A stretch of 64,000 bases of DNA, taken from the IMG/VR virus record IMGVR_UViG_3300006924_000007, positions 8,258-72,257 of that record. One strand, written 5' to 3'. Shown here one piece after another: positions 39,338 through 61,406 of the stretch. The number at the start of each line of letters is the position of its first letter. Positions within the stretch are counted from its first letter, which is position 1. This DNA comes from a virus. Position numbers and translations under genes: made by a program. The notes below the pieces were generated by a model. It was not told where the DNA came from, ran no database searches, and worked only from the letters and a program-made list of their open reading frames with translations.

Positions 39338-40450
39338 TTACAATCCACCGTGACCGTTAGATGCAGATCCAGCACCACTCCTTGATTGTGTCAAATTACC
39401 AAAATCTATTGCATTTCCAGTGCTCATAATCTGAACATAATCAATTGTATCTGTTCTACTCGGTGTTGGACGATTACCACCAGCCCAGACTCCACGAGTT
39501 GGTGATGATGTAGCCTTCATTTCACCACCTCCAACAGTTAAATCACCAAAATCAACTGCATCTCCTAATGTTGCAATAGTAATATACTCAATAGTATTAA
39601 CATTAGGACCTGCACCCCCGAAAAGTCCCCTAACAGAATTTGAACAAGCTCCACCACCAGATGCAAACACATCGCCAAATTCTGATGCATTACCTAATGT
39701 AGATATCATTATAAATTCAAGAGTTGCTCCACCAAATACTGCCCTTGTTGAAGACTGACAAGCAGATTTCCCGCCAACATTTGAAGCATTACCAAAGTCT
39801 TGTGCATTTCCTGTTGACTGAATAGTTATATAATCAATAGTATCAACATTAGTAGTAGTATAACCAGCAATAAAAAGACCTCTGGTTGAATTTGAAGCAC
39901 CGCCAGCAGACATTCTTGCTTGTGATAAATTACCAAAATCTGCTGCATTTCCAGTTGATGCAATAGTAACAAAATCAATTGTATCTAATACTGTTGGAGT
40001 TCTTCCACCTCCGAAACACGCTCTGGTTCTGTCAGAAACTCCTGCTTGTAAGTGAACACCACTGCTTTGTGCATCACCAAAATTAATTGCATCTCCTGTT
40101 GACTGAATAGTTATATAATCAATTGTATTCGTATTTGGAGTTTCTCCACCAGAGAAGAGTCCACGAGTTCCACCAGTCTGTAACTCTGGTGACCAACTAT
40201 CAACTTCCATCCATATTCCGTTGGGAGTTGTTCCAAATCCAACGGGCCCGAGTATATAAACTTCTAATTTCTTGGAGTCAGTATTAAATCTGATTGATCC
40301 TGCGGGTGCTTGATTGTATGATGGTAATTCTTGTCCAGAAACATCACCAAAGGCACTTCCACCTCCTACTGTGGTATAACTTCCGCTACCACCACCTGAA
40401 CCACCGGAGCTGCCACCGCCTCCGCCTCCGCCGCCGCCACCATATCCCAT
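39338..40450 (-). CDS. Kelch-like six-repeat protein, type B (second half of the N-module), poly-Gly N-terminus
   Basis: MGYG(n); AGSIRFNTDSKKLEVY...W; six RG.F.GG...IDY.TI..GNA.DFG.L repeats; ends SNGHGGL. Confidence 0.8.
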   Translation of the reverse strand: MGYGGGGGGGGGGSSGGSGGGSGSYTTVGGGSAFGDVSGQELPSYNQAPAGSIRFNTDSKKLEVYILGPVGFGTTPNGIWMEVDSWSPELQTGGTRGLFSGGETPNTNTIDYITIQSTGDAINFGDAQSSGVHLQAGVSDRTRACFGGGRTPTVLDTIDFVTIASTGNAADFGNLSQARMSAGGASNSTRGLFIAGYTTTNVDTIDYITIQSTGNAQDFGNASNVGGKSACQSSTRAVFGGATLEFIMISTLGNASEFGDVFASGGGACSNSVRGLFGGAGPNVNTIEYITIATLGDAVDFGDLTVGGGEMKATSSPTRGVWAGGNRPTPSRTDTIDYVQIMSTGNAIDFGNLTQSRSGAGSASNGHGGL

Positions 40451-41472
40451 TAGCCTAGACCTCCATGTGAATCAGAACAAGCAGCAGTTTGGTTTCTTGC
40501 AAGATCTAAGTCACCAAAATCCTGTGCATCTCCAAGAGTGTTTATAGTTACATAAGAAATAGAATCGCCATCAGATGTCATATCACCAAAAATTGCTCTG
40601 GTTGGTGATGAACATGCTGATCCTAAAGTACATCCACTAATACAATCACCAAAATCTATTGCATCACCAAGACTTGCGATCGTTATATGATCAATGATAT
40701 TAGTATTAGATGGATTTGCTCCACCAAAAAATAATCCCCTCGTAGAATTGGATGCGGAAGCACCTTCTTTTCTCGCGTCTGTCAAATCCCCAAAGTCCTT
40801 TGTATTACCTTCAGTTGATATTGTTATATACTCTATTGTATTAACTGCAGGGTATGGAGATGCATATGGAGAATTTGATAAAGCAATAATACCTCTAGTT
40901 GTTGATGCATTCGACATGCCATAAGCAAAGGTTGCTGATGCATCTCCAAAAGTAGTTGCATTACCAAGACTGTTTATAGTTATAAACTCCATCTCACGAA
41001 AAGCTGTAACAGTGGGAGCAATATTCCCTCCCACACAAATACCTCTGGTGTTATCAGAAAGACAAGCAGTTCCTCTTTTTTGTCTGGTTAAATCACCAAA
41101 GTCAAAAGTATTTCCAAGTTGAGATATTGTAAGATATTGTATGGTGTTAATGTTAGTTGGAAATGTCTCTCCACCCATGAAGATGCCACGAGTGGATGAT
41201 GCACAACCACCAAATTCTGCAGTGGTTGTTGTTAAATTGCCAAAGTCGAGACCATTTCCTAAAGTAGAGATGGTAAATTTATCCATTCTCTCTTTGAGTC
41301 CTGGTGATGTTCTACCACCGACAAAGATACCAGTTCCTCTACCACCACGATAAGCAGTATCACCTCTTGGTAGTGCCATTGCACCAGTAGAGTTCATCTC
41401 AACGGTGCCAGAAATTACAGGACCATTAGTTCCACTCAAACTTTGTATATTGTTTACCTTAATGTCTGACAT
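40450..41472 (-). CDS. Kelch-like six-repeat protein, type A (first half of the N-module)
   Basis: MSDIKVNNI...LPRGDTAYR leads directly into the repeats; ends SDSHGGLG. Confidence 0.8.
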   Translation of the reverse strand: MSDIKVNNIQSLSGTNGPVISGTVEMNSTGAMALPRGDTAYRGGRGTGIFVGGRTSPGLKERMDKFTISTLGNGLDFGNLTTTTAEFGGCASSTRGIFMGGETFPTNINTIQYLTISQLGNTFDFGDLTRQKRGTACLSDNTRGICVGGNIAPTVTAFREMEFITINSLGNATTFGDASATFAYGMSNASTTRGIIALSNSPYASPYPAVNTIEYITISTEGNTKDFGDLTDARKEGASASNSTRGLFFGGANPSNTNIIDHITIASLGDAIDFGDCISGCTLGSACSSPTRAIFGDMTSDGDSISYVTINTLGDAQDFGDLDLARNQTAACSDSHGGLG

Positions 41473-41495
41473 CGGTTAATATCTCATACGATTAT

Positions 41496-42629
41496 TTATC
41501 CAAGACCACCATGTGAATCAGAACAACCATTTTTTAATCTTCTTCTTGCGGCAGTTAAATTTCCAAAGTCGGTTGCATCACCAAGAGTTGCGATAGTCAC
41601 ATAATCAATGACATCACTTAATGATGGTGATTCTCCCCCTGCCCAACAACAACGAGAGGGTGAAGAAAACGCACCTACTTGTCCTCTTCCTACAGTCAAA
41701 TCGCCAAAATCTAGTGAATCTCCAAGAGATGCGATTGTGATGTAATCTATTGCTGCATTAAAGGGAACTCCCGGATAATCTCCACCACCAAATACACCTC
41801 TTACAGAATTCGATGCACCGTTAGCATCAGTTGCCCCATTTATACCAGCATCTCCAAAATCTTGTGCATTTCCCATCGTGGAAATGGTCACGTATTGCAT
41901 GGTATTGTTATATGTTCCAGGTGATGGAGCATAATAGTTTATCCAAATACCTCTGGTTGAACTTGCTGCATTGGAGAAATTATTACAAGCAGTGACCAGA
42001 TCACCAAAGAAGAATGCATTCCCTAATGTAGAAATTGTAATTTGATCAATGGTGCTTCTATAATTGGACTGGTCGTAACCTCCTCCGGCCAATCCTCTAG
42101 TGTCATTTGATACTGTACCGACTCCGTGCTCTGCTGAACTTAAATCTCCAAAATCAAATGCATTTCCAGTTGCAGAAATTGTTACATAATCAATTGTATT
42201 TTGAGAAGTATCACCTGGAGCATTTCCTCCACACCAAACTCCACGCACAGAAGAAGCAAGACCAGAAACATAATCGTTTGCTCTAGTTAAATCGCCAAAA
42301 TCGGTTGCATCTCCTGTTGTTGCAATTGTTACGTAATCAATAGTATTAAATTGTGAAGGACCAAATCCTCCACCCCACATTCCACGACCTCTACTACCTC
42401 TCTCTGCCGTAGTTCCACTTGGAGGAATGAAGTGTGCCGTGGAATTTACTTCTACAATACCATCAACATCTGTTCCTCTCTTTCCATCTCTGCTTGTTAT
42501 ATTATCTACTTTTAGGTTTGCGGTTCTATCATCACTTACACGGCGATATCCAGACCCACCAGAAGCACCTGATCCTCCTCCTGATCCACCGCCACCGCCG
42601 CCGCCGCCACCGCCGCCACCGTATCCCAT
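41496..42629 (-). CDS. Kelch-like six-repeat protein, type A, poly-Gly N-terminus
   Basis: MGYG(n)...NLKVDNI...FIPPSGTTAER then the repeats; ends SDSHGGLG. Confidence 0.8.
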   Translation of the reverse strand: MGYGGGGGGGGGGGGSGGGSGASGGSGYRRVSDDRTANLKVDNITSRDGKRGTDVDGIVEVNSTAHFIPPSGTTAERGSRGRGMWGGGFGPSQFNTIDYVTIATTGDATDFGDLTRANDYVSGLASSVRGVWCGGNAPGDTSQNTIDYVTISATGNAFDFGDLSSAEHGVGTVSNDTRGLAGGGYDQSNYRSTIDQITISTLGNAFFFGDLVTACNNFSNAASSTRGIWINYYAPSPGTYNNTMQYVTISTMGNAQDFGDAGINGATDANGASNSVRGVFGGGDYPGVPFNAAIDYITIASLGDSLDFGDLTVGRGQVGAFSSPSRCCWAGGESPSLSDVIDYVTIATLGDATDFGNLTAARRRLKNGCSDSHGGLG

Positions 42630-42660: not shown

Positions 42661-43731
42661 TTATCCCAATCCACCGTGACCATTAGAAATGCCCATAGAA
42701 AGTCTTCTTGCACTGGTCAAATTACCAAAGTCAACTGCATCACCTAAACTCATAATCTGTACATAAGCAATTGTATCAACATTTGGTGTTCCTCCGCCAG
42801 CAAAAATTGAACGAGTCGATGATGCTGCTGATGTTGAATATGCTGCATCATAGGTTAAATCACCAAAATCTATTGCATTTCCAAGGGTGGCAATTGTTCC
42901 ATAACTTAAAGATCCAACAGGAGATCCACCATCTCCATGAATACCTCTTACAGAATTGGAAGATGAACCTCTATTTGAAGTGGTAGATTGTGCATCTCCA
43001 AAGTCCGCAGAATTTCCTAATGTGGATATTGTAATATATTGAATTGTATTAATGCTGCTAATACTGGGAGTTGTACCTGTGTTTCCACATAGGTGAATAC
43101 CTCTTGTTGATGAAGCCCATCCACCACCTGTATGATTTCCTGCACCAGTATATAAATCACCAAAATCAACAGCATCTCCTGTTGATGCAATGGTTATGTA
43201 GTCGATTACATTTGATCCTTTATAATTGGGAGATTGAGGTGCAAGACCACCCATAAGAACACCACGAGTGGAATTTGCACAACTGCCCATACTTCTTCTG
43301 GCAGTGGTCATATCACCAAATGTGGTGTCATTACCTGTTGATGATATGGTGATGTACTTCAGGTTCGTTGAATAATGAGGTAAATTTCCTCCGAATACAC
43401 CTCTTGTTCTTGATGCCAGAGCAAATCCCTCATAATCGGATGTTGCAGTTCCAAAAGAAATTGCATCGCCAGTGGAACTCATATTAACATAATCAATACC
43501 AGTTTGATCTCTTCCACATACAATTACACCACGAGTTCCACCAGTCTGAATATCTGGTGAATCAGTTGTGAGTTGAACCCATTCTCCTGCTGCCATGGTT
43601 CCAATGCCAGCATAAGAACTTGTGCTTCCACCTTCCATTCCAATACGGAAATACTCTAGTTTCATAGAGTCCGTGTTGAATCTGATTGCTCCTGGAGTTA
43701 TATTACCTGGTGCGTTTTCTCCGTGTGCCAT
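42661..43731 (-). CDS. Kelch-like six-repeat protein, type B
   Basis: PGAIRFNTDSMKLEYF...W; ends SNGHGGLG. Confidence 0.8.
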   Translation of the reverse strand: MAHGENAPGNITPGAIRFNTDSMKLEYFRIGMEGGSTSSYAGIGTMAAGEWVQLTTDSPDIQTGGTRGVIVCGRDQTGIDYVNMSSTGDAISFGTATSDYEGFALASRTRGVFGGNLPHYSTNLKYITISSTGNDTTFGDMTTARRSMGSCANSTRGVLMGGLAPQSPNYKGSNVIDYITIASTGDAVDFGDLYTGAGNHTGGGWASSTRGIHLCGNTGTTPSISSINTIQYITISTLGNSADFGDAQSTTSNRGSSSNSVRGIHGDGGSPVGSLSYGTIATLGNAIDFGDLTYDAAYSTSAASSTRSIFAGGGTPNVDTIAYVQIMSLGDAVDFGNLTSARRLSMGISNGHGGLG

Positions 43732-44735
43732 TATCCTAGACCTCCGTGTGAATCAGAACATGCACCAACTTCTCTTCCTGCTTCAATTAAATCTCCAAAG
43801 TCAACTGCATTACCAATAGATGCAATGGCGACATAATCAATTACATCACTATCACTTGGAGTATCACCACCACCCCAGACACCACGAGTACTAGAGGAAC
43901 AAGCACCAGGATAATATCTTGCTAATGTCAAATCACCAAAGTCTTGTGCATTTCCTTTTGATGCAATAGTGACATAATCCATTGTATTAACTCTGGCTGG
44001 GGCCGAGACTCCACCAGCAAAAACACCACGAGTTGATGAAGAACAAGCAGAAACTCCATATCTTACTTGAGTTAAATCTCCAAAGTCTGCTGCATTTCCT
44101 AATGATGCTATGGTGATAAAATCTATTGTGTTTTGATTAGTTGCTCCAGGATCTTGACCACCACCAAAGACACCACGAGTACTAGAGGAACAAGCACCAA
44201 GATTACTTCTTATTTGAGTTAAGTCACCAAAGTATGCAGCATTTCCTTTTGATGCAATGGTAATATAATCTATTATTTTTACTTTAGCTGTTGCATCCTC
44301 ACCACCACCAAAGACCCCACGAGTACTAGAGGAACAAGCAGGAAATTCTTTTCTTACTCCAGTCAAATCACCAAAATCAAATGCATTACCTGTTGATGAT
44401 ATAGTTACAAATTCTATTATGTTTAATCTACTTGGAACAGCACCACCACCAAAGACACCACGAGTACTAGAGGAACAAGCACTCGGAGCTTTCCTTGCTG
44501 CAGATAAATTGCCAAAATCAGTTGCATTTCCTAGTGTAGAAATTGTTATATACTCAATTCTATCAGTAGATGGATCTCCCCCACCAAAAACACCACGACC
44601 TCTACCACCACGATAAGCAGTATCACCAGAAGGCATCACAATACCAGAAGTTCCAGTGAAGGTAGTGATACCTGCAATATCTGGTCCTCTGGATGCATCT
44701 TGACTTTTGATTTGATCTATTCTAAATTCTGACAT
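43731..44735 (-). CDS. Kelch-like six-repeat protein, type A
   Basis: MSEFRIDQI...MPSGDTAYR; highly homogeneous ACSSSTRGV(F/W)(G/A)GG repeats; ends SDSHGGLG. Confidence 0.8.
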   Translation of the reverse strand: MSEFRIDQIKSQDASRGPDIAGITTFTGTSGIVMPSGDTAYRGGRGRGVFGGGDPSTDRIEYITISTLGNATDFGNLSAARKAPSACSSSTRGVFGGGAVPSRLNIIEFVTISSTGNAFDFGDLTGVRKEFPACSSSTRGVFGGGEDATAKVKIIDYITIASKGNAAYFGDLTQIRSNLGACSSSTRGVFGGGQDPGATNQNTIDFITIASLGNAADFGDLTQVRYGVSACSSSTRGVFAGGVSAPARVNTMDYVTIASKGNAQDFGDLTLARYYPGACSSSTRGVWGGGDTPSDSDVIDYVAIASIGNAVDFGDLIEAGREVGACSDSHGGLG

Positions 44736-45790
44736 TATAAACCTCCGTGACCATTAGAGCATCCCATTTCTTGTAAAAGAGTTGGGTTTATCAGGTCACC
44801 AAAATCAATTGCATTGCCGGTTGTCATAATTTGAACATAATCTATTATATTAGTTTGTGTTGGTGCCCAAGATCCTGCCCAACATCCACGAGTTGGTGAT
44901 GATACTGCACCAATCTCATGTCTTGCTGTAGTTAAGTCACCAAAATCAGTTCCATTACCAAGAGTACTCATCGTCACATATTCAATGGCATTTGTACTTG
45001 ATCCGGCATTACCACCACCATTCAAACCTCTCACTGCATTTGAACATCCGGCAGCATAATATTTTGCAACATTTAAATTACCAAAATCTGCAGTATTTCC
45101 AAGAGTTGATATGGTAACAAATTGAATATAGTCTTTGATATCACTTATATATCCTCCCATTGCAAATCCACGAGTGGGTGAATTAAATGATGATTGAGAT
45201 CTCACTGCCTCAGTAAGATCGCCAAAATCTTTTCCAGCACCTGTTGCTGCAATAGTGACATATTCTATACTTGCAGTTAAAGGTGATGGTCCAGTAAAAC
45301 CACCAGCTATAAGACCCCTAGTTGAATTACTCATACCAACAGGATAATACCTACCAGTGGGTATATCACCAAAATCTGTTGTATTGCCACCACTTGCTAT
45401 GGCACAAGTATCAATAGAAGCAAGTGTAGATGGAGTAAGTCCTCCTGCCCACATTGCTCTTGTTCTACTAGAGAATCCAGCATTACCATATACTGCTCCA
45501 CTTCCAGATAAAGTTCCAAAATCTACTGCATTACCAGTAGTGTTAATCTGTATATATTGAATGTCATCATATCTTGGATGAGGCGATGTTCCAAAACCAC
45601 CTGCATACAATCCACGAGTTCCACCAGTCTGAACCTCTGGTGATGTTGCTTCTATTTCTTCCCACTGACCAGCAGCAAGTGTGCCGATTCCTGCCATTGA
45701 AGCAGTTCCTTCATAGTTTGCACTACCACGAAAGATCTCCAGCTTCATGGAGTCGGTATTAAATCTAAATGCTCCTGGTTTAATCGTCAT
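44735..45790 (-). CDS. Kelch-like six-repeat protein, type B
   Basis: MTIKPGAFRFNTDSMKLEIF...W; ends SNGHGGL. Confidence 0.8.
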   Translation of the reverse strand: MTIKPGAFRFNTDSMKLEIFRGSANYEGTASMAGIGTLAAGQWEEIEATSPEVQTGGTRGLYAGGFGTSPHPRYDDIQYIQINTTGNAVDFGTLSGSGAVYGNAGFSSRTRAMWAGGLTPSTLASIDTCAIASGGNTTDFGDIPTGRYYPVGMSNSTRGLIAGGFTGPSPLTASIEYVTIAATGAGKDFGDLTEAVRSQSSFNSPTRGFAMGGYISDIKDYIQFVTISTLGNTADFGNLNVAKYYAAGCSNAVRGLNGGGNAGSSTNAIEYVTMSTLGNGTDFGDLTTARHEIGAVSSPTRGCWAGSWAPTQTNIIDYVQIMTTGNAIDFGDLINPTLLQEMGCSNGHGGL

Positions 45791-45815: not shown

Positions 45816-46949
45816 TTAGAGACCTCCGTGACCGTTGGAACAACCACCTTCTCCGCTCCATCTTGCAACTGTCAAATTGCCAAAATCTACTGCATTACCG
45901 GTTGTTTGTATTGTTACAAAATCAATAGTATCATCGTTTGGTGCTGCACCACCAGCCCATAAACCTCTTATAGGTGAAGAGGTTGAGTTTCCGTGTTGCA
46001 TGGTTCTTGTTAAATCACCAAAGTCTTGTGCATTTCCTAATGTTGCAATGGTAATAAATTGTATTGTACTAACTTTTGATGGTGTTAATCCTCCTCCATG
46101 TACTCCTCTTGTCGCATTACCACATCCAATCGCATCAAATTGATTCTGCACCAAATCTCCAAAGTCTTGTGCATTTCCGGTAGTAGATGTGGTTACATAT
46201 TGAATTGTAGAATCCTCTGCTGGTGTAGAACCTCCGGCAAATATGGCACGAACTGGTGATTGGCATGTTCCAACATTATTAGTTGCTGCAATTAGATCTC
46301 CAAAATCAACTGCATTACCTGTTGATTGAATTGTAACATAATCAATTGTATTTACTTTAGTTGGACTTGCAACTCCACCACCAAATAGTGCTCTCGTTGA
46401 ATTAGCAGCGGATCCAGCACCTCTTCTACCTACACTCAAATTTCCAAAATCTTGTGCATTTCCTGTTGACGAAATTGTTACATAATCTATTACATCATTT
46501 GTTGGATTTTGTCCTCCCCATAAACCTCTAGTTCTATCCGCATTAGCTGCAGCAGCATATCTTGCTACTGTTAGATTTCCAAAGTCCTGTGCGTTTCCAA
46601 GAGTAGAGATAGTAACATAATCAATTACATCTTGATTTGCTGGTGCAGCATATCCACCACCAAACAATCCACGAGCTCCTGTTCCACCGGAAGAGTTTGT
46701 ATTATTTTGATCTCCAAGTTCGTTGTTATTAGTAATCACATCAACCCAAAGTTCACCTGTGTAATACTCAAGGTGACCACTATCAGTATTAAACCTTATC
46801 ATCCCTTCTCCGGGACTTGAAGGTCTCTGTGCTGTTGAACCTGATGGTGGAACAAAATAGTTTGGTGATGAGAATGTAGAGATGCCAGATACTACTGGTG
46901 CTCCATCTTCGTTCTCGTTAAAAAGATTGCTTACATTAAGTCTTGACAT
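45816..46949 (-). CDS. Kelch-like six-repeat protein, full N-module
   Basis: FVPPSGSTAQRP...GMIRFNTDSGHLEYY...W; 377 aa. Confidence 0.8.
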   Translation of the reverse strand: MSRLNVSNLFNENEDGAPVVSGISTFSSPNYFVPPSGSTAQRPSSPGEGMIRFNTDSGHLEYYTGELWVDVITNNNELGDQNNTNSSGGTGARGLFGGGYAAPANQDVIDYVTISTLGNAQDFGNLTVARYAAAANADRTRGLWGGQNPTNDVIDYVTISSTGNAQDFGNLSVGRRGAGSAANSTRALFGGGVASPTKVNTIDYVTIQSTGNAVDFGDLIAATNNVGTCQSPVRAIFAGGSTPAEDSTIQYVTTSTTGNAQDFGDLVQNQFDAIGCGNATRGVHGGGLTPSKVSTIQFITIATLGNAQDFGDLTRTMQHGNSTSSPIRGLWAGGAAPNDDTIDFVTIQTTGNAVDFGNLTVARWSGEGGCSNGHGGL

Positions 46950-46951: not shown

Positions 46952-48085
46952 TTATAAACCTCCATGACCATTAGATATTGCACCATAACCATATGATCTT
47001 GCTTGAGTTAAATCTCCAAAATCTGTTGCATTTCCAGTGGTGGCAAATTCAATATAATCAATCGTATTACGTTTACCACCTGGTTTCTGACCACCAGCAA
47101 ATACTCCTCTTGTAGGACTTGCAGCAGCAGAAGTTCCAGTTCTTGCTTCAGTTAAATCACCAAAGTCTTGTGCATTTCCTGTGGTTGCAATTGTCATAAA
47201 ATCAATCGCATTATTAGTGCCACTTCTCCCTGCATAAACTCCCCTTGTTGCATTTGAGGATGCTCCTGCACAGTTTCCTTCAGCCGTCAAATCTCCAAAG
47301 TCCTGTGTATTTCCTGTTGTTGAAAGAGTTACATATTGAATAACATTGGTGGCGTCACCTGTTCCACCCATTGCTAATCCACGAATAGATGATGCAAAGT
47401 TTGATGTTCCCTGAATTGCTACTATCAAATTACCAAAATCAACAGCATCTCCGTCTGATGCAATTTCTACATAATCAACAGTATCTTGTGAAGATGGATT
47501 TACTCCTCCACTAAAAATACCCCTTGTTTGATTAGAACATGCACCTATATTATGCCTAGCTACAGTTAAGTCTCCCCCAGTATCAACTGCATTTCCAGTT
47601 GATGCAATTGTAATCTTCTCTATAGCATCTCTTTGTCCTGGTGTATATCCACCAGCAATAAGTCCTCTAGTTCTTGATGCACACTGACCAGAACTTCTAT
47701 ATACTGAAGTTTGATTACCAAAATCTTGTGCATTTCCTAAAGTTGAAATGGAAATATAATCTATTGTATCAACTATAGTTGGTGTATATCCACCTGCAAA
47801 TACCGCACGAACTCCTGTTCCACCAGCAGAGTTTGATACATTATTATTACCAAGATTAGGAGACTCACCAAGTATCGTTGCCCAGTGGTCGTTTCTCCAT
47901 ACTTCAAGTCTTCCAATATCAGTATTAAACCTCAACATCCCTGGTGGAGGACTACTGGGTCTTTCTGCTGTTGATCCTGATGGTGGAACGAAATAATATG
48001 GTGATGTAAATGTTGTAAGTCCTACAATATTTGGACCGCTACTACCAAATTCATCACTAAAACCTGAAGCCTTAAATTCTGACAT
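46952..48085 (-). CDS. Kelch-like six-repeat protein, full N-module
   Basis: FVPPSGSTAERP...GMLRFNTDIGRLEVW; 377 aa. Confidence 0.8.
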   Translation of the reverse strand: MSEFKASGFSDEFGSSGPNIVGLTTFTSPYYFVPPSGSTAERPSSPPPGMLRFNTDIGRLEVWRNDHWATILGESPNLGNNNVSNSAGGTGVRAVFAGGYTPTIVDTIDYISISTLGNAQDFGNQTSVYRSSGQCASRTRGLIAGGYTPGQRDAIEKITIASTGNAVDTGGDLTVARHNIGACSNQTRGIFSGGVNPSSQDTVDYVEIASDGDAVDFGNLIVAIQGTSNFASSIRGLAMGGTGDATNVIQYVTLSTTGNTQDFGDLTAEGNCAGASSNATRGVYAGRSGTNNAIDFMTIATTGNAQDFGDLTEARTGTSAAASPTRGVFAGGQKPGGKRNTIDYIEFATTGNATDFGDLTQARSYGYGAISNGHGGL

Positions 48086-51404: not shown

Positions 51405-52334
51405 TCACTCTTCTACAGATGCTTTCAGTTTAGCATACTCTTCATCTACTTTAGATTCTGGAAGAACAGCATAGTTTGGTATTGCAAGAGACTTCTCATC
51501 AAGAATCTTAAATCCACGACTTTCTGCAAAGCGTTCTGAACAATTCTCAAACTTATCTGCACACTTTTCAAGCCACTCAACAGTCATCTCATGTGAAGGT
51601 GCCTGACCATTTGCAATCAGTTCGTTCTCCATCTTCAGATAGTTGAAGACTTCTGCTTGTGCATGTGAAACATTGACACCAATATCAAACAGATAGATAG
51701 AGTTTCCTTCATCAATCACACCACCACGAGGACGGGCAGAGTTCAATGCTTGCTTCAGGCAGGTCATTACATGATAACGCTTCTCTTCACGCTCATAATC
51801 TTCTTCTGTAATATGGTCTTTGCCAATGTGATCTAGAACAGAACGATACTGAGTCATCAGGAAGGACATCTTACGGATGGCACCCTTCATTGAGTTCTCA
51901 ATGTTCATGTTGTTATTCATGAGTTCGATCATCTCAATCTCAAGTTCTTCACGATCTAAATCATCCTTTTCAGCATCAATCTCACGTTGCTTCTTACGGA
52001 TTTTAATGTCATTCTTACGGCGATTGATTTGTGCCTCTGCAAGGGCACTCTTTGTTCTTTCAATCGCGGCAAGAGTATGCTTGATGCTACGGATAGGTGT
52101 CAGGTCAGTGATGTCCAAAGTCACAGTCATCATCTGTGAGTGTGACTTGTAGAAGTTGTCACAAGCAAGTTTAGTTGCAGGTAATGTTTCCTCAATATGA
52201 GTCAACATTCCTGTGTATTCTTGCGGCAGAGGACCAGTTGCAAGTTGTGCAAGGTCACTCTTGAGCGTTGTGACAGAAATCTCTGAACCAGGTGTAATAT
52301 CTACCGAAGTAATAGCAGAACTTTCTTCATTCAT
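51405..52334 (-). CDS. Hypothetical coiled-coil protein
   Basis: 309 aa, helical; first gene of the internal cassette; preceded by an ATAAATA motif. Confidence 0.65.
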   Translation of the reverse strand: MNEESSAITSVDITPGSEISVTTLKSDLAQLATGPLPQEYTGMLTHIEETLPATKLACDNFYKSHSQMMTVTLDITDLTPIRSIKHTLAAIERTKSALAEAQINRRKNDIKIRKKQREIDAEKDDLDREELEIEMIELMNNNMNIENSMKGAIRKMSFLMTQYRSVLDHIGKDHITEEDYEREEKRYHVMTCLKQALNSARPRGGVIDEGNSIYLFDIGVNVSHAQAEVFNYLKMENELIANGQAPSHEMTVEWLEKCADKFENCSERFAESRGFKILDEKSLAIPNYAVLPESKVDEEYAKLKASVEE

Positions 52335-53453: not shown

Positions 53454-55205
53454 TTATCCAAGACCACCATGAGCATTTGATAATCCAAATAAACCATTCT
53501 CATCGTAAACCAGATCACCAAAATCAATTGAATTTCCGGTGGTTGGGATTGCAATATATTGAATTACATTACCAGCAGAGGATGGTTGACTTCCACCAGC
53601 AAATATTCCACGAGTTGATGATGAGGCAGTGTTTCCTCTTTGGTTATGTTTGTATAAATCACCAAAATCCTGCCCATTTCCAGATGTTGATATTGTGACA
53701 AATTCAATTGTCTGTGTATTACTAGGGGTGATTCCCCCACCAAATACGGCTCTTGTCGAATTTGAACACCCTGACAATCTAAATCTAGATTCGCTTAAAT
53801 CACCAAAGTCTTTTGCATTTCCAGTTGTTGCAATGGTTACATATACTATGCTGTTTTCAGCACCACCCGAATTTGAACCAGCGATTACCCCTCTGACAGG
53901 ACTTGCTCCTCTTGCCGATGCATATAAACCTTGTATTAGATCGCCATAATCTGTGGCATCACCAGTGGTTGCAATTGTTACATAATCAATAACATTGAAT
54001 GTGCTTGGAAAATATCCTCCAGCAAACACTGCACGAGTTGAATTAGAAATACCAGCAGCTTGCTGCCTTGCTTGGGTTAAATCACCAAAATTTGTTGCAT
54101 CTCCTGTTGATGTAATGGTAATATAATCTATTGTATTTGTCGCTGCGCTGGTAGATGGTGCTATGTTTCCTCCAGCAATTATACCCCTTGTTCTTGATGC
54201 ACAACCATTACCATCTAAAGCACCAGACTGTCGAGTCAAATCACCAAAATCTGTGCCATTCCCAAGGGTTGCAATAGTAATATACTCAATGGTATTAACA
54301 TGAGGATCGCCACCACCAAAAACACCACGGGCACTACCATCACTAACAGCATTGGTAGCAAAATTCGGAAATCTTTCTTCTGTCGTTCCCTTTGGTAGTG
54401 TTAACCAGTTCTGTGAGACAAATCCTGCTCCACCTTGGAATGTTGGACCAGCAGTAGGATCAACATTTCTTGTCAGTCCTGGATTGAATGTTGTAATACC
54501 AATGGGACTATCAGTTGCTGTGGGTGTTGGAGAACTTGTGCGATCACCATGTGCTACAATGACCTTTCCTGTTTTTTCTGCAAAAATATTCTCTCCATCA
54601 TACAACCCAAGGAAAACAGTTTCTGGGTGAACTTCTAGTTCTCTGGTTGGAACTGTAAAGTTTTCTGTATAAACTGCATGTCCCTTACAAATACGAATGT
54701 TGGACATATATCCTTGGAATTCATATGTGGCTGGCGCGGGTGTATAGTCTCCAATTCCTAAAGGAGTTAGATCATTATATATTGTTCCCGATACAGTATT
54801 GGTGTATTTCTCTATACCATTTATAAAATATCTAAAAGTATTACTACTTCTAGTAAGAGCAAAATGACTCCATTCATTTTGAAATATACTGTCTGTTCCA
54901 GTTGCATTGGCAGTAGAAATCATATCATAACTACCACCATTGCTACTCACATATAATGACAAAGAATTTGAACTCATAAAGTATGTCTGTAGCGAATATC
55001 CAGGAGTAACAAGTGTTGCATATGAACCCTGAGGTATTCCAGTTGGATAAATAAATCCTTCTATTGTAAAGTCTCCACTACCAAAACTAAAGTCATCACT
55101 ATCAGCAATACTCAAATGATCCTGAACCCCATCAAAAAATACTGACCCTGTGTTCTCGGTGGATACTCCAACTGCTGCAATCTTATTGACTCTTAAATTT
55201 GCCAT
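53454..55205 (-). CDS. Kelch-like six-repeat protein, type A, with one LamG/ConA-like domain
   Basis: SVFFDG...GDFTIEGFI...WSHFALTR...GYMSNIRI (LamG), then LPKGTTEER, then the repeats. Confidence 0.82.
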   Translation of the reverse strand: MANLRVNKIAAVGVSTENTGSVFFDGVQDHLSIADSDDFSFGSGDFTIEGFIYPTGIPQGSYATLVTPGYSLQTYFMSSNSLSLYVSSNGGSYDMISTANATGTDSIFQNEWSHFALTRSSNTFRYFINGIEKYTNTVSGTIYNDLTPLGIGDYTPAPATYEFQGYMSNIRICKGHAVYTENFTVPTRELEVHPETVFLGLYDGENIFAEKTGKVIVAHGDRTSSPTPTATDSPIGITTFNPGLTRNVDPTAGPTFQGGAGFVSQNWLTLPKGTTEERFPNFATNAVSDGSARGVFGGGDPHVNTIEYITIATLGNGTDFGDLTRQSGALDGNGCASRTRGIIAGGNIAPSTSAATNTIDYITITSTGDATNFGDLTQARQQAAGISNSTRAVFAGGYFPSTFNVIDYVTIATTGDATDYGDLIQGLYASARGASPVRGVIAGSNSGGAENSIVYVTIATTGNAKDFGDLSESRFRLSGCSNSTRAVFGGGITPSNTQTIEFVTISTSGNGQDFGDLYKHNQRGNTASSSTRGIFAGGSQPSSAGNVIQYIAIPTTGNSIDFGDLVYDENGLFGLSNAHGGLG

Positions 55206-55208: not shown

Positions 55209-56231
55209 TTATAATCCTCCGTGACCGTTAGAGCAGTTTCCTCTCATCATTAGACTTCTAGCAACAGTTAGATTTCCAAAATCAACAGAATTTCCTGTGG
55301 TCATAATCTGCACATATTCAATTGTATCAGTTGTAGATGGAAATCCTCCACCACCATAACATGCACGAGTTGATGATGATGGAGATCCTCCAGAATAATG
55401 ATTTGTTGCAACTGTTAGATCACCAAAATCTAATGCATTACCTAAAGTTGCAATAGTAAGATAATTTATATCTTCCGCGCCTCTTCTAAAATATAATGCC
55501 CTTACTGCATTAGATGATGCACCACCACTGTGATCTACAATTGTTAAATCACCAAAGTCTGCTGAGTTTCCAAGAGTTGAAATAGTGACAAAAGTAATTG
55601 TATTTGTATCACCTGGTGCTGTCCCTCCCATGACTAGACCACGAGTAGGACTTGCTGCTCCAGCTGGGGAACTAGTTGCTGCCGTCAAATTTCCAAAATC
55701 AATAGTATTTCCATTCGTATCTATTGTAGTATATTGAATAATATCTTGTCTTGTTCCAGTTGTTCCACCAGCAAATATTCCACGAGTTGCATTTGCAAGT
55801 GGTGCAAATCCCTGACAATTACTTGTTGCCGACAACAAATCACCATAATCAGCTGCATTTCCTGTTGATGATATTGTTACAAAATCAATTGCATTCGATC
55901 CAAGAGGAACTGCATTACCTGCCCATAGTGCTCTGGTTCTATTTGAAAATCCAGCACTTTCTCGTCTTGCTTCAGTTAAATTGCCAAAATCAATTGCATT
56001 TCCTGTTGATGCAATGTTTATGTAGTCTATTTCATTTCTGCTTGCAGGAGCAACATATCCACCCGCCAATAATCCACGAGTTCCAGGAGTTGAATCACCA
56101 CTGGTTCCAAGATTAGGAGTATCAGTAGACATCACCCACCATTCTCCCTGAGCATAAAACTCTAGCCTCTGGGAGTCGGTATTAAATCTAATTGCACCTT
56201 GTGGGATTTCGCCTGATGGGGGGAGACTCAT
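55209..56231 (-). CDS. Kelch-like six-repeat protein, type B
   Basis: MSLPPSGEIPQGAIRFNTDSQRLEFY...W; ends SNGHGGL. Confidence 0.8.
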   Translation of the reverse strand: MSLPPSGEIPQGAIRFNTDSQRLEFYAQGEWWVMSTDTPNLGTSGDSTPGTRGLLAGGYVAPASRNEIDYINIASTGNAIDFGNLTEARRESAGFSNRTRALWAGNAVPLGSNAIDFVTISSTGNAADYGDLLSATSNCQGFAPLANATRGIFAGGTTGTRQDIIQYTTIDTNGNTIDFGNLTAATSSPAGAASPTRGLVMGGTAPGDTNTITFVTISTLGNSADFGDLTIVDHSGGASSNAVRALYFRRGAEDINYLTIATLGNALDFGDLTVATNHYSGGSPSSSTRACYGGGGFPSTTDTIEYVQIMTTGNSVDFGNLTVARSLMMRGNCSNGHGGL

Positions 56232-56252: not shown

Positions 56253-57944
56253 TTATGAGAGACCACCGTGAGAGTCTGAACATGCAGCACCTTGTTTTAT
56301 GCGTTGAGTTAAATCACCGAAGTCTCTTGCATTTCCTGTGGTCTGTATTGTTATATAATCTATAGCATTTGTTTCATCTACCACAAGCACATCTCCTAAT
56401 GCAAGAACACCTCTTATTGAATTACTTGATGCACCTTCCGGTTCATATGCTCCATTGGTTAAGTCGCCAAAATCTTGTGCATTTCCAAGAGTTGCAATTG
56501 TTATATACTCAATAACATTTGATTTAGATGGAGATGCATACCCTCCAGCAACTATACCTCTTGTTGAATCGGAAAGTGCCATTCTTGAGGTATTAGTAAT
56601 TGTAGTATCACCAAAATCTTGTGCGTTTCCAGTTGTTGCCCATGTAATATACTGAACTGTGGTGCCAATGAAAATAATACCTCTGGTTGGAGATCCGCAT
56701 CCACATCCTTTCGAACTCTCATCAGTTAAATCGCCAAAGTCTTGTGCATTCCCTATTGATGCAATAGTCACAAAATCAATTATATTACTATTACTTCCCG
56801 GAGTTCCCCCCGCAAAAAAGACAGCCCTGGTGGTATTTGATGCACCACCGACATCCATTCTTGTTGTAGTCAAATCACCAAAGTCAGTTGCATTACTTGT
56901 TGTTGAAATAGTCACAAACTCAATGACATTAGTTGTTGGAGAAACCTGTCCACCAGCAAACAACCCTCTAATTGCACCTGCGGCACCAGCCAATCTTTCC
57001 CTAATACTAGTCAAATCACCAAAATCTAATGCATTACCTTGAGTTTGAATTTGAATAAAATCAATCGTGTTTTTCTGAGATCCGGGGTTGGCATTCCCAC
57101 CACCAAACAATCCACGACCTCTGCCTCTTTGTTCTGTCGTGCCTGATGGTGGAACAAAATATCCTTGAGTATCAAATGTTGTGACACCACTGAACTCTGT
57201 GCCTGATGTGAAGTCTCTGGTGAGTCCTGGAGAGAATGTTGATGCTGCTGCATTTCCATTGGCAGTGATAGTCTTTCCTGTTCCATCTGCAGCTGCAGAG
57301 TCTGGGTTATTGCAACAGAGTAATACAGTATCACCAATAACTTCTAATGCATGTGTTGGTGGTGTGAAGTCTGATGTGTAAAGTGCGGTTCCATTGAGAA
57401 TTCTTAAGTTGGATACATATCCGGTAATACTTTCACTGTTGTATTGACCTACGTTAAATTCTGCTGCAGAAATATCTGCTTGGGGTGTTCCACTCAACGA
57501 AATATAATCAGTTCCTCTCCCATTGATGAATAATTTTGCACCATTTGCAACACTATATGTCATTGCAATGTGTGACCATTCTCCAACAACGACTTTATCG
57601 GATGTAACAAAAGTATGATTTTGACTTCCTTTCCAATAATAAAATTTTACAGTATTATCACTAACTGGACCGAAAGACCAATAATTGGTAGCACCATCAT
57701 GTTCAAAATGACCAACCATAGCTGGAATATCGCTTCCAGCTCCGGCATCATTAAACCACCAATCAGCATAACTATCAGCATATATCCATGCTTCAATGGT
57801 GAAATCAGATTGCCACCAATTAACAAAAGAATTATTAATTGGAGTAACTGCTAAGTAATCCCCAGTCCCATCAAAACTCACAGACCCTGTGACTGGTGTA
57901 GGTGTTTCTAACCCTGAAATTTTATCGGTGCGTAATATTCCCAT
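56253..57944 (-). CDS. Kelch-like six-repeat protein, type A, with one LamG/ConA-like domain
   Basis: SVSFDGTGDYL...DFTIEAWIY...WSHIA...GYVSNLRI; FVPPSGTTEQR; repeats. Confidence 0.82.
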   Translation of the reverse strand: MGILRTDKISGLETPTPVTGSVSFDGTGDYLAVTPINNSFVNWWQSDFTIEAWIYADSYADWWFNDAGAGSDIPAMVGHFEHDGATNYWSFGPVSDNTVKFYYWKGSQNHTFVTSDKVVVGEWSHIAMTYSVANGAKLFINGRGTDYISLSGTPQADISAAEFNVGQYNSESITGYVSNLRILNGTALYTSDFTPPTHALEVIGDTVLLCCNNPDSAAADGTGKTITANGNAAASTFSPGLTRDFTSGTEFSGVTTFDTQGYFVPPSGTTEQRGRGRGLFGGGNANPGSQKNTIDFIQIQTQGNALDFGDLTSIRERLAGAAGAIRGLFAGGQVSPTTNVIEFVTISTTSNATDFGDLTTTRMDVGGASNTTRAVFFAGGTPGSNSNIIDFVTIASIGNAQDFGDLTDESSKGCGCGSPTRGIIFIGTTVQYITWATTGNAQDFGDTTITNTSRMALSDSTRGIVAGGYASPSKSNVIEYITIATLGNAQDFGDLTNGAYEPEGASSNSIRGVLALGDVLVVDETNAIDYITIQTTGNARDFGDLTQRIKQGAACSDSHGGLS

Positions 57945-58960
57945 TATAGACCTCCGTGAGCATTAGATGTTCCACCCGCTGTTTGCACATTACGAGCCAA
58001 GTCTCCAAAATCTACAGCATTTCCAAAAGTTGTAATTTCTACATAATCTATCGTACTTACATAAGATGGAGTAGCCCCACCACCCCATACTCCCCGTGTC
58101 TTACTACTACATGCACCGGTTGCACGTCTTGTCTGCGATAAGTCTCCAAAATTTACAAATTTTCCTAATGATGCAATCGTAATATATTCTATGTCATTAG
58201 TTACACTTCCTGGTACATTAACTCCTCCAAATAATCCACGAGTTGCAGATGAACATCCACCATCTGAACCCTGTCCTCCACCAGTAAGTGCATCTCCAAA
58301 ATCTTGCCAAGTTCCAGTAGTTGGAATAGTGGCATAAATTGATGCTTTAGAACTTCCCCCACCTGCCGCGATAGTTCTTGTGGGACTGCTTATACCACTT
58401 GCAAATCCCTCTGCAAGAGTGGTGCTCATATTGCCAAAATCTTGTCTGCTACCTGTGCTTGCAATAGTGAATAGATTTGTAGTTGCAACTGATCCACCAC
58501 CAGGTTGTCCCCCAAAAAATAATCCTCTGGTTTGATTTCCACCTGAACCACCAGATCTTTTTGCCTGTGATAAGTCTCCAAAATCAAATACTTGTCCTAA
58601 TGATGCTATCTCCCAGGCATCTACCTGTGCGCTATAACCTCCTGATGATGCCTCCTTCATTCCCTGAAGTGCTCTAGTGCTTGATGCACACGCTGAGGCA
58701 CCAAATGCCGCAACGTTTAAATCACCAAAATCAAACTCACTTCCCGTTGATGCGATATTAATACCATCTATGTATATTTGATAGTTTCCGGGTGCAAGAC
58801 CACCAGCAAAAAATCCACGAGCACCAGGAGTTGGATCACCAGCACTTGCAAGATTTGGTGTTGCAGTATGAACCTGAAACCATGCCGAGCCATTCCAATA
58901 CTCCAACTTCTGTGAGTCGGAGTTAAATCTCATTGCACCTGCTGGAATCTCTGCTGACAT
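57944..58960 (-). CDS. Kelch-like six-repeat protein, type B
   Basis: MSAEIPAGAMRFNSDSQKLEYWNGSAW; ends SNAHGGL. Confidence 0.8.
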   Translation of the reverse strand: MSAEIPAGAMRFNSDSQKLEYWNGSAWFQVHTATPNLASAGDPTPGARGFFAGGLAPGNYQIYIDGINIASTGSEFDFGDLNVAAFGASACASSTRALQGMKEASSGGYSAQVDAWEIASLGQVFDFGDLSQAKRSGGSGGNQTRGLFFGGQPGGGSVATTNLFTIASTGSRQDFGNMSTTLAEGFASGISSPTRTIAAGGGSSKASIYATIPTTGTWQDFGDALTGGGQGSDGGCSSATRGLFGGVNVPGSVTNDIEYITIASLGKFVNFGDLSQTRRATGACSSKTRGVWGGGATPSYVSTIDYVEITTFGNAVDFGDLARNVQTAGGTSNAHGGL

Positions 58961-58982
58961 GTTACACTACCTCTGTCATTAT

Positions 58983-61406
58983 TTATCCAAGACCGCCATG
59001 ACCATTGGAAAATCCAGCTCCGCCACTACCCGGAGTAATTGTGTCACCAAAATCTTGTGCATTTCCTGTAGATTGGATAGTTACATAGTCAATTATATTT
59101 AAGAAAGCAGGACTATCGAATCCACCAGCAATGACTCCACGAGTTGAAGAAGCACATGATCCTATTGGCTCTTGTGCTGCTCTGCCTGTACTTAAATCAC
59201 CAAAATCTTGTGCATCTCCTAGTGTTGCGATTGTTATATAGTCAATTCGGTTTACGTTTCCAGCAAGACCTACACCTCCGGCTCTTATTGCACGAGTTGA
59301 ATTGGAACATACTACATAGAATGACTCTCCTGAGTTTCCTGCCCCTATCATGTCACCAAAATCTATCGCATTTGATGTCGTTGCAATGGTTACATAATCA
59401 ATTGTATTAGTACGATTTGGAGATGAAGGAAAATAACCTCCAAAGAAAATACCACGAGTTGGAGAACTCGCTTGTCCTGAACCACCGGTTCTGGCAAAAG
59501 TTAAATCTCCAAAGTCAATTGCATTTCCTGATGTTTGAATCGTAACATATTGTAGGGAATTTGTTGCAGTAGTACTTGATGGTCCTTCTGCAGCGTGAAG
59601 AATTCCTCTGGTTTGGTTTCCTGCTGCACCGCCCTCTCTCGTTTTAGTAACGCAATCACCAAAGTCCTTTGCGTTTCCTGTTGTTGCAATAGTAATATAA
59701 TCAATCTTATTATCTAAATTTGGTGATGAATTAGGATTACCACCCGCAAATATGCCTCTTGTATTTGATGCAAAACCACTCATACCTCTTCTTGCGGAAG
59801 TTAAGTCACCAAAATCTTTACTATTTCCCTTAGATGCAATCCCAATATACTCAATAATATTCGATATGGCAGGATCACGATAACCTCCAGCAATAACACC
59901 ACGAGTTCCTGCATTATAAGTTCCGGTTGCTTCTCTTGATTCTGTATTACCAGTTGGGAGATAGAAATAAGCATTTGAGTTTACTTTGGTGACACCCTCA
60001 AAGGTTACTTGTCTATCATCACCGACTTGTGGTGTGAAGTTTGATGGTCCCGGTGCTGTTGTTATACCAGAATTAACAACTGTATCATACGTATAAATTC
60101 CATTAAGTGAAATAGTTTTTCCGGTTGCCTCTTGTGTTGGATCATTAGAATCCTGACAACATAAAAGAACAGTGCCTGGAACTCTTTTGAGTTCTCTGGT
60201 TGGTGGAATGAAGTTGTCTGTATAGAGTGCAGTTCCTTTATTTACACGGAGGTTTGAGATGAAACCATAATATTCAATATTCCCATAGGTATGAGTGTAT
60301 TGTCCAATAGTTGGATTTCTTGTCGTATCACTAAAGTCAGTGGATACAGTTGTTCCTGCGGATGCAACTCCATTTACAAAAATTTTAACAGTATTTGACG
60401 CACGAGTCACTGCAACATGATGCCATGACCCAACCTCTACGGTTCCTCCAGATACTGTGGTTGATCCAAATGTTGCTTTAATTGCTTTGTCACTATCAAC
60501 TTTAAAAACAATGTAATCATTGCCAGATTGAGTTTGAGTAAATATTGCTTTTGTCTCTCCTCCATTAATTCCTTGTGGTTGTATCCATGCCTCTATTGTA
60601 AAATCTCCTGTTCCGTATGCAAAGTCTGTTCCTGCAGAAAGCACAAGGGCATCACTAGTAGATGTAAACTCAACAGACCCAGTGATTGCACTACCACCAC
60701 CAGACTTCACAATGGGTGTTAAAAGACCAGGAGTGAGTTCATTTGCAACTGCATTTCCATTGACTGTGATAGTCTTACCAGTCTTTTCAAGTGTTGCATC
60801 AGTCTTTGATTGGCAAGCAAGAAGAACAGTTCCCGGAACAACTTCAAGTTCTCTCATTGGAGGCTTGAAGTTTGATGTGTAGAGTGCTTTGCCTTTGACT
60901 ATACGGAGGTTAGAAATGTGACCATCCCAAAATCTAGATGGTGATTCCCAGTCACATCCTATTCTAAATTCATCTGCACTTACGCTTAAAAAAGTACCAC
61001 TATATAAACTTTCATCAGTTTTTTTACCATTTTGATATATTGTTATTATACTGTCTTTTTTAACTACAGATACATGCACCCACTGACTTTGTGGCACTTC
61101 ATTACCTGATATACCAAAAGTAGCACTACCATCATTAGAAAAAGTAAATCTCGGAATTCTATTAGAAAAGTATAAAATCCAACTTCTTCTACTATCACCA
61201 AAATTGTAGAATCCAGCAATATATTGTGTTCCTGAAGAATTACATAATGCCCAACATTCAATCGTAAAATCTTCTGCTGTGGCATTTAATCTAAAATCGG
61301 CATTATTGGGGATACTTAAATAATCCCCAGTCCCATCAAACTGAACTGAACCAGTCGTCTCAAAGGTTTCTGTGCTTGTAATCTTATCTACTCTTAAGTT
61401 TGCCAT
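58983..61406 (-). CDS. Kelch-like six-repeat protein, type A, with two LamG/ConA-like domains
   Basis: Two DFTIE.W...W.HV...ISNLR domains, then LPTGNTESR, then the repeats. Confidence 0.82.
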   Translation of the reverse strand: MANLRVDKITSTETFETTGSVQFDGTGDYLSIPNNADFRLNATAEDFTIECWALCNSSGTQYIAGFYNFGDSRRSWILYFSNRIPRFTFSNDGSATFGISGNEVPQSQWVHVSVVKKDSIITIYQNGKKTDESLYSGTFLSVSADEFRIGCDWESPSRFWDGHISNLRIVKGKALYTSNFKPPMRELEVVPGTVLLACQSKTDATLEKTGKTITVNGNAVANELTPGLLTPIVKSGGGSAITGSVEFTSTSDALVLSAGTDFAYGTGDFTIEAWIQPQGINGGETKAIFTQTQSGNDYIVFKVDSDKAIKATFGSTTVSGGTVEVGSWHHVAVTRASNTVKIFVNGVASAGTTVSTDFSDTTRNPTIGQYTHTYGNIEYYGFISNLRVNKGTALYTDNFIPPTRELKRVPGTVLLCCQDSNDPTQEATGKTISLNGIYTYDTVVNSGITTAPGPSNFTPQVGDDRQVTFEGVTKVNSNAYFYLPTGNTESREATGTYNAGTRGVIAGGYRDPAISNIIEYIGIASKGNSKDFGDLTSARRGMSGFASNTRGIFAGGNPNSSPNLDNKIDYITIATTGNAKDFGDCVTKTREGGAAGNQTRGILHAAEGPSSTTATNSLQYVTIQTSGNAIDFGDLTFARTGGSGQASSPTRGIFFGGYFPSSPNRTNTIDYVTIATTSNAIDFGDMIGAGNSGESFYVVCSNSTRAIRAGGVGLAGNVNRIDYITIATLGDAQDFGDLSTGRAAQEPIGSCASSTRGVIAGGFDSPAFLNIIDYVTIQSTGNAQDFGDTITPGSGGAGFSNGHGGLG

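Follow-up and report, generated by a model that had tools for sequence, protein, structure and literature searches.

A fibre repeat divided between adjacent propeller genes of a phage: candidates for multi-headed tail appendages

Introduction

Why would a phage keep a long run of paralogous genes in which one short N-terminal module is sometimes whole and sometimes divided between two neighbours? This question is raised by a 64,000-nucleotide stretch of viral DNA (IMG/VR record IMGVR_UViG_3300006924_000007, positions 8,258 to 72,257; hereafter the window), in which 17 paralogous genes on the minus strand, between positions 39338 and 64000, encode proteins with a predicted propeller head. A sequence-only reading of this DNA had proposed that two kinds of genes carry complementary halves of the module and that their products rebuild it in trans. 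Here, we followed the two halves in the window and in related contigs. The array most likely encodes multi-headed receptor-binding appendages of the tail, with receptor binding and a place on the virion presumed from sequence features.

Seventeen propeller genes in three classes

Each of the 17 proteins aligned as six repeats of about 47 residues (..IDYITIATTGNAxDFGDL..TRG.F.GG) closed by a C-terminal S-[ND]-x-HGGL. Two parts could be distinguished in the module ahead of this head. The first part, N1, comprises an N-terminal peptide of about 30 residues (MxxIRVxxI..GP..G..T.F) and the motif PxGxTxxR. The second, N2, is a GxxRFNxD..E..W mini-sheet that is predicted to be three-stranded. Classes were assigned by a regular-expression motif scan, by an alignment of the 17 sequences and by two hidden Markov models (HMMs) built from the window's own copies, and the three approaches were concordant. 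With genes named by their lower coordinate, five encode the whole module (N1+N2, classes F and long: 48088, 46952, 45816, 61408, 62834), six encode N1 only (class A: 40450, 41496, 43731, 53454, 56253, 58983) and six encode N2 only (class B: 39338, 42661, 44735, 52394, 55209, 57944). HMM scores were bimodal, at 45-61 bits where a module part is present and with no match or less than 1 bit where it is absent. The partition into five, six and six genes proposed earlier was exactly reproduced by motif scan, alignment and HMMs. As also seen in the alignment, the N-terminal peptide is common to the A, F and long classes and B proteins lack it.

Two assignments needed adjustment. Genes 61408 and 62834, which had been counted with the other whole-module genes, do hold both halves but form a separate long class, in which a fibre-like N-terminus of 80-110 residues precedes the module. 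The A genes carry the first half only, as claimed. In three of them, however, one or two Laminin_G_3 domains (PF13385; cut-off 27.6) split the N-terminal peptide from PxGxTxxR (58983, 132 bits in two stretches; 53454, 65 bits; 56253, 53 bits). Two of the B genes start with M..(L)PPSGEIP.GAIRFN and thereby retain a remnant of the first half.

In the order of transcription, the right block reads A-B-A-B-A-B and the left block B-A-B-A-A-B. Both orders had been read exactly, and so had the TAATG stop/start overlaps, which are four in number (at 57944, 44735, 43731 and 40450). The three A-to-B spacers of the right block are 21-22 nucleotides long and each contains AGAGGTA. B1 (57944), for example, has a 22-nucleotide spacer with this motif upstream and a TAATG overlap downstream. 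The same scheme, with 21-22 nucleotides and a ribosome-binding site from A to B and an overlap or 3 nucleotides from B to A, was found at the right-block junctions of the window and of two complete relatives (G001 and G002), and the right-block A-B order was also found in L099 and L100. Enumeration of random orders of three A and three B genes per block gave P = 0.03 for an alternation at least this strong. This is weak evidence alone, since tandem duplication could yield the same pattern. A stronger argument against chance is that the class order is kept at the same slots of sister contigs in at least five lineages.

A module built on a common fibre repeat

A profile made from 25 copies of the module was run over representative proteins with a threshold of E≤0.001. 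It matched 20,176 of them, some of which held as many as 19 copies. In these proteins, PxGxTxxR and GxxR[FY]N..E..W make up one contiguous, unnamed fibre repeat of about 45 residues, and in 146 of the 150 matches listed the best stretch begins at profile position 8 or earlier, so that it includes PxGxTxxR. Copies of the whole repeat unit are arranged head to tail in fibre-like proteins (P0435, P0506, P0455). In the window, each whole-module or long gene has one intact copy, and A and B genes have complementary parts, with the A/B boundary falling exactly between PxGxTxxR and the N2 sheet. Because the repeat is contiguous in so many proteins, the module is, as judged from sequence, a single copy of a common fibre repeat together with the N-terminal peptide, and this repeat is divided between A and B. 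The contiguous repeat and the single-gene counterparts described below bear out the proposal that the halves complement each other within one unit.

PxGxTxxR is as conserved in A genes, where no N2 is present in cis, as in whole-module genes. In one sequence alignment (A3), G37 and R42 were invariant and P35 and T39 were conserved at 90% or more; in another (A2), all four residues were invariant.

N2 (FNTD..LE.Y.G..W) resembles the canonical Kelch blade pattern of the designed propeller SAKe6. The idea that it is a spare Kelch blade was rejected: the summed E-value of 1.7e-6 over the six repeats of SAKe6 corresponds to 3-4 bits per repeat, and hhalign comparison of N2 plus linker with the phage's own blades was negative, giving probabilities of 23.5% (over six columns, at the RG.. 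start of blade 1) and 0.4%. Separately, an N1 peptide of the A5 type (96% identical) was found on a 381-amino-acid (aa) protein, P0149, with nucleotidyl-transferase domains (PF00483/PF12804), which is a genuine novel fusion or else a chimera created during assembly.

A/B pairs as counterparts of single genes

Relatives were collected by two IMG/VR scans, which gave 104 loci, and from three further stretches; open reading frames were classed by the two HMMs. As a test of fission or fusion, N1 and N2 were compared separately by BLAST with the window proteins. In L003-like contigs, the right block reads long-long-A-B-F-F. The A protein of L003 (A345) matches A58983, with an orthologous N1, and its B protein matches B57944. 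The next gene, F377, has its best N1 match in A56253 (78% over 27 aa, 44 bits, the next being 33) and its best N2 match in B55209 (60-61%, 65 bits, the next being 48.5). For L003 F374 and L084 F366, the best matches are A53454 for N1 and B52394 for N2. L007 F608, which is organised as N1-LamG-N2-propeller, has its best matches in A53454 for N1 and LamG and in B52394 for N2 and propeller. In L006, the slot 5+6 pair of the left block is replaced by F600, composed of a slot-5 N1, an unrelated 210-aa domain, a slot-6 N2 and a propeller.

By these matches, an A gene together with the next B gene is the slot-for-slot counterpart of one whole-module gene. Since N1 and N2 of the sister single genes best match adjacent A and B genes, the pairs are fission or fusion counterparts: A/B pairs may be fission products of whole-module genes, or whole-module genes may be their fusions. 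Such 'Rosetta stone' pairs are classically a hint that the products act together. The present case is alike in that two adjacent genes correspond to one gene in another genome. It differs in that each product keeps a complete head and only the short assembly module is divided.

These data suggest the following arrangement. Each protein consists of a hypervariable head, predicted to be a six-bladed Kelch-type propeller, on a short, slot-specific and strongly conserved N-terminal assembly module. The fibre repeat is cut between adjacent genes, first A (N1-propeller), then B (N2-propeller). The putative virion anchor, a peptide absent from B, would come from A, and N2 would recruit B to the same stalk. 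A and B would thus presumably co-assemble into the stalk as a whole-module chain does, in a stoichiometry that is likewise presumed, and one stalk position would bear two different heads. We place A and B on the same stalk because B lacks the shared peptide, because PxGxTxxR is invariant in A and because pairs and single genes interchange. To this co-assembly, with A anchoring and B recruited through N2, we give about an even chance.

Conservation of slots in related contigs

In the complete array of G001, three long genes are followed by three A-B pairs, four non-propeller genes, F-F-F and B-A-B-A-A-B. This makes 18 propeller genes in complete relatives versus 17 in the window. Three consecutive long genes are present in G002 as well, and three also in L099, L101, L102 and L104. 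In the window, G001, G002, L099 and L100, the long genes precede three A-B pairs, the first A of L099 and of L100 being recognisable by eye but below the HMM threshold. The class order of the nine-gene left block is identical in eight contigs, including the window. The adjacency and parity of A and B read from the window therefore extend only in part to relatives: the class order recurs, in at least five lineages, but parity fails in the L003-like lineage. Among contigs with a window-like left block, three lineages have N1+Laminin_G proteins without a propeller in some A slots. Such proteins occur in A slots of L003, L007, L047/L079 and L083 and indicate that N1 is portable, presumably as an anchor.

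We compared all nine left-block slots with those of L001 and L002. The N-terminal modules were 85-100% identical, versus 43-57% for the propellers (73% in one case). With the more distant L011, the corresponding values were 43-64% and 37-53%. N-terminal modules of different slots were only about 40-55% identical to their paralogues. Searches with the N-terminal modules of A43731 and B42661 yielded 350 and 417 protein clusters, respectively (clustered at 90% identity). Among the best 120 of each, identity over the aligned part of the module was 81-100%, and residues 1-48 of A43731 were 85-100% identical in the best 120 of its 350 clusters. Conserved anchors with exchangeable heads, as these sequences appear to have, are the usual signature of receptor-binding proteins. 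Combinatorial mixing of A and B chains, which had also been put forward, is not supported. Each slot has its own N-terminal module, conserved in close sister contigs, and this makes fixed partners likely and mixing unlikely.

At the N-termini of A7 and B9, a Gly/Ser run of 25-30 residues (MGYGGGGGG..) is present. The extension occurs at the same two slots in L001, L002, L006, L082 and L083 and at the one slot seen in L095; none was detected in the L011, L003 and L007 lineages. A7 and B9, although encoded by non-adjacent genes, may be partners.

Co-assembly or independent anchoring

Structure predictions were obtained for one whole-module protein and one B protein. In the AlphaFold2 model of F48088, residues 1-31 have a predicted local distance difference test (pLDDT) value below 55. 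A small three-stranded sheet spans residues 35-70 and leads into a floppy linker; the N2 strands (51-54, 59-63 and 68-70) reach 73-80. A complex prediction with full-length A43731 and residues 1-72 of B42661 gave an ipSAE of 0.00 in both runs, carried out without controls, and speaks neither for nor against binding.

Several observations weigh against A and B sharing a stalk. In B42661, which has no N1, the same N2 strands are predicted (16-19, 24-29 and 50-53; pLDDT 75-77), so N2 has no visible need for PxGxTxxR. Even with N2 in cis, the first 31 residues of F48088 remain at low confidence, and N1 and N2 are thus not one compact domain in the monomer. The L003-like left block reads F-F-F-B-A-B-A'-B in five contigs, with three N2 against two N1 in its B-A-B-A'-B part. 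Within the window's left block, neither B44735 nor A41496 has a neighbour of the other class that could be its partner in the A-to-B sense. An N2-like copy ends the 791-aa tail fibre of this phage and N2-only copies occur within multi-repeat proteins, so that N2 can exist without a recognisable first half. Finally, A, B and F heads are intermixed in a tree of the propellers, which has long branches and no support values. The heads hence lend no support to pairing.

Much of this would also be expected if N1 and N2 were independent, sufficient anchors for different sites, for instance the tip of the 791-aa fibre, with A and B never touching. Whole-module proteins would then simply have two anchors, and the A/B order would be inherited synteny. 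Besides an N2 that is predicted to fold alone, an N1 peptide that is disordered in the model, the broken parity of the L003-like lineage and the N2-like copy on the 791-aa fibre, this explanation is favoured by the portability of N1 onto Laminin_G-only proteins and by the large domains found between N1 and N2 or inside N1. A precedent may be Mtd, whose N-terminal beta-prism, a domain with a Pfam model that matches relatives of the repeat, presumably attaches the Mtd trimer to a tail fibre according to PMC10743442. Independent anchoring leaves three facts unexplained, namely the invariance in A genes of PxGxTxxR, a motif that elsewhere always stands beside N2, the position of the A/B boundary inside a repeat unit, and the slot-for-slot exchange of A+B pairs and single N1+N2 genes. 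We consider it somewhat unlikely, and keep co-assembly as the preferred reading.

The 791-aa fibre could be a docking partner of the propeller proteins or simply another user of the repeat. Its N2-like copy is preceded by IPTFNSTKRN.

Number of chains per stalk

A more specific version of co-assembly, which we judge to be improbable, is that stalks are trimers of three different chains in which the N1/N2 break is tolerated, with up to six heads. There would be one stalk per set, the sets being the three long genes, the three A+B pairs, the three F genes and B-A-B-A-A-B. In such hetero-oligomeric stalks, three to six genes would contribute three N1 and three N2 segments, and each piece of a broken chain would be kept in place by the other two chains. 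The number of heads per stalk would double from three to six at an unchanged docking site, and a virion could bear up to 18 different hypervariable heads in four fixed bouquets, a picture that we likewise take to be improbable. The counts fit in several places: three long genes are present in the six relatives mentioned above, every complete left block has three F genes, and L003 A-B-F-F and L006 B-F600-A-A-B each sum to three N1 and three N2. However, the L003-like left block has only two N1, and three homotrimers per set would fit the counts equally well. Gene numbers in other phage groups with the propeller cut both ways. Of 31 untruncated clusters, 12 have three genes, which is the maximum, but 6 have two and 13 have one. 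A general 'rule of three' was rejected, since only 12 of the 31 clusters outside this phage group hold three genes.

Trimer formation would also be in line with a relationship to the beta-prism of the Mtd trimer, as characterised in PMC10743442. The Pfam cut-offs of Mtd_N (PF18454) and DUF7360 (PF24059) were just reached by copies of the repeat in two of its relatives (P0427, 28.6 versus 26.3 bits; P0453, 29.4 versus 27.6). The window's own module, in contrast, does not match either family. None of the 25 aligned module copies reached threshold (the best was one copy with DUF7360, E=0.028), and six-frame searches of the whole contig gave no match to Mtd_N or DUF7360 at E≤10. A sequence search of the PDB with the module profile returned only Gp49 (9d83, residues 370-404), at E=0.07.

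In another phage group (L015, L018, L037, L041, L048, L052, L060, L066, L072), the same propeller is encoded in gene triplets with other N-terminal adaptors. These are MPLRPPAGFI with a domain of about 100 residues, MPSYSGVWTL..WP, and W.AGIIRPV followed by GVWTLDQ..WP; in L048, MPLRPPAGFI is fused to PYSGVWNL..WP. By eye, the triplets suggest that the scheme 'part X, part Y, X+Y' occurs here a second time.

Propeller heads

AlphaFold2 models of F48088 (from an alignment of 60 sequences) and B42661 showed 24 strands in six blades, with a pLDDT of about 90 over the propeller. Foldseek gave matches to KLHL12, KLHL3, Keap1 and SAKe6 with template modelling scores of 0.85-0.90 (target-normalised) and E-values of about 1e-16. 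According to the models, the heads have a six-bladed Kelch-type propeller fold. No Pfam Kelch family was among the matches of seven paralogues at E≤0.1 or of three more at E≤0.01, and a sequence search of the PDB with a whole F protein gave no match at E≤10.

When the best 8,000 candidates were scored, 7,999 matched the propeller family at E≤1e-5. The family also occurs on contigs of 197-214 kb. Very common in marine metagenomes, it is unnamed, has no Pfam entry and lacks a representative that has been cultured and studied. All members of the superfamily, including those of loci L008-L078, end with ..S-[ND]-x-HGGL or a close variant whatever their N-terminus, and in these sequences the HGGL tail is the most widely conserved element.

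The HGGL end bears on a further explanation, in which the split serves no purpose today. A and B genes would stem from unequal recombination among tandem propeller genes, their half-modules would be leftovers, and the proteins would be attached via something else, for example this C-terminus. Tandem paralogues that are about 45-55% identical do invite unequal crossing-over, the heads are shuffled among classes in the tree, and the HGGL end is present in every superfamily member. Leftovers would decay, yet the N-terminal modules are the best conserved parts of these proteins, across hundreds of clusters, and the class order is kept in at least five lineages. We regard this explanation as very improbable.

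Relation to known systems

By analogy, branched receptor-binding protein (RBP) complexes are the closest known systems. Ackermannviridae tailspike complexes are reportedly of this kind. In podophages of Klebsiella (KP32, K11, KP34), according to PMC13352976, an anchor-bearing RBP1 is associated with an RBP2 that docks by a conserved N-terminal peptide. The earlier remark of knowing no described system like this was therefore too strong, as the branched RBP systems outlined there share the principle. The systems are alike in their several RBPs per virion (presumed here), neighbouring genes, short conserved N-terminal parts and variable, exchangeable C-terminal binding domains, and the pair formed by an anchor-bearing and an anchorless docked protein may parallel A and B. 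Differences are also clear. The Pfam and PHROG matches of the A genes include no branching domain of the T4-gp10 type, unlike in branched RBP systems. The docking elements here are two halves of one fibre repeat with single-gene counterparts, six A/B pairs and six whole-module genes stand against two to four proteins, and the heads are Kelch-type propellers instead of depolymerase beta-helices.

Mtd of Bordetella phage BPP-1 is similar in having a short N-terminal beta module before a variable receptor-binding head. Its head is a C-type lectin and not a propeller, and Mtd is absent among the PDB profile matches of the module. Structural proteins with Kelch domains are reported for jumbo phages. 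Three Kelch genes, including CBB_552, are described in PMC5259590 for the jumbo phage vB_PcaM_CBB, where they were found by InterPro Kelch models; six-bladed Kelch-type propellers in a large phage are common to both cases. Here, there are 17-18 paralogues that have no Pfam Kelch match and are recognised by predicted fold alone, and their N-terminal modules are split. The literature searched on phage Kelch proteins and heterotrimeric fibres contained no description of this propeller family or of the split module.

If A and B do co-assemble, the array would be a natural case of a fibre repeat split between two polypeptides, which adds an extra head to an existing docking site. This would offer a simple evolutionary route to multivalent host recognition, and would give those who engineer multi-headed phage fibres two docking tags that are compact and conserved. 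Whatever the mechanism, near-invariant modules of 40-80 residues next to freely exchanged heads mark sites of host-range recombination.

Source phage and neighbouring genes

The window corresponds to the final 64 kb of a 72-kb IMG/VR virus contig, with a completeness of 35% according to CheckV. Its tail genes encode a tail tube, a hub/lysozyme-like protein, an 1851-aa fibre and the 791-aa fibre. A 434-aa conserved tail protein (20362-21666) shares 31-39% identity with proteins from phages of Synechococcus and Prochlorococcus (S-SKS1, S-SRM01, P-SSM2), which makes picocyanobacteria candidate hosts. A nucleotide search of a phage collection with the window gave no match, and tblastn gave S-SKS1 as the sole match, with 31% identity. 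From the cyanophage-like tail protein and the lack of a close relative in that collection, we infer that the source is a large uncultured marine phage. The propeller genes and the other features are listed in Table 1.

Table 1. Features of the propeller array and its surroundings (window coordinates)
Feature	Position	Strand	Description	Remark
Long-class gene	62834..64000	-	Fibre-like N-terminus, N1b, N2 and propeller	5' end maybe lost at contig end
Long-class gene	61408..62802	-	464 aa; fibre-like N-terminus of ~110 aa, PLGDTNSR..GTTRFNQD..W, propeller	
A1	58983..61406	-	807 aa; peptide MANLRVDKI, two Laminin_G_3, PTGNTESR, propeller	No N2
B1	57944..58960	-	338 aa; N2 (GAMRFNSD..W) starting at residue 8, propeller	No N1
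A2	56253..57944	-	563 aa; MGILRTDKI, Laminin_G_3, PSGTTEQR, propeller	
B2	55209..56231	-	340 aa; begins MSLPPSGEIPQGAIRFNTD, propeller	PPSG is a remnant of the first half
A3	53454..55205	-	583 aa; MANLRVNKI, Laminin_G_3, PKGTTEER, propeller	
B3	52394..53431	-	345 aa; MSNLPPSGEIPRGAIRFNTD.., then propeller	
Four non-propeller genes	49225..52334	-	309 aa; 240 aa; 192 aa, Thr-rich; 263 aa, sulfotransferase	Between the blocks
F1	48088..49221	-	377 aa; whole module (residues 1-42 for N1 and 46-73 for N2), then linker and six-blade propeller	
F2	46952..48085	-	377 aa; whole module	
F3	45816..46949	-	377 aa; whole module	
B4	44735..45790	-	351 aa; N2 starting at residue 6, with 18-aa insert, propeller	
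A5	43731..44735	-	334 aa; N1 (MSEFRIDQI..PSGDTAYR) directly into blade 1	
B6	42661..43731	-	356 aa; insert-bearing N2, propeller	
A7	41496..42629	-	377 aa; Gly-rich extension MGYGGGG.., N1, propeller	
A8	40450..41472	-	340 aa; N1, propeller	
B9	39338..40450	-	370 aa; Gly-rich extension MGYGGGG.., N2, propeller	
791-aa tail-fibre-like protein	6081..8456	-	Last ~30 residues are an N2-like copy (..GAIMYNTTTNKLNFWNGSAWEAV)	N2 HMM 17.9 bits, residues 763-789

In relatives, the two blocks are separated by about 3.1-3.3 kb, with the same genes in L003, L007 and G001 and partly in G002. The region between the blocks of the window (49225-51403, minus strand) includes the sulfotransferase gene (49225) and the gene of the 240-aa protein, which is unannotated (50681). 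Genes for two 2OG-Fe(II) oxygenases (37069 and 38729) and a radical SAM/SPASM protein (37800) abut the end of the array on the plus strand (37069-39337). The protein-modifying enzymes predicted beside and between the blocks might act on the appendage proteins. An 80-nucleotide gap (50017-50096) upstream of the sulfotransferase gene contains a GC-containing inverted repeat and, after it, a T run (TTGCCG..CGGCAATTTTTT). In sequence this looks like a terminator, so that the left block may be transcribed as a unit of its own.

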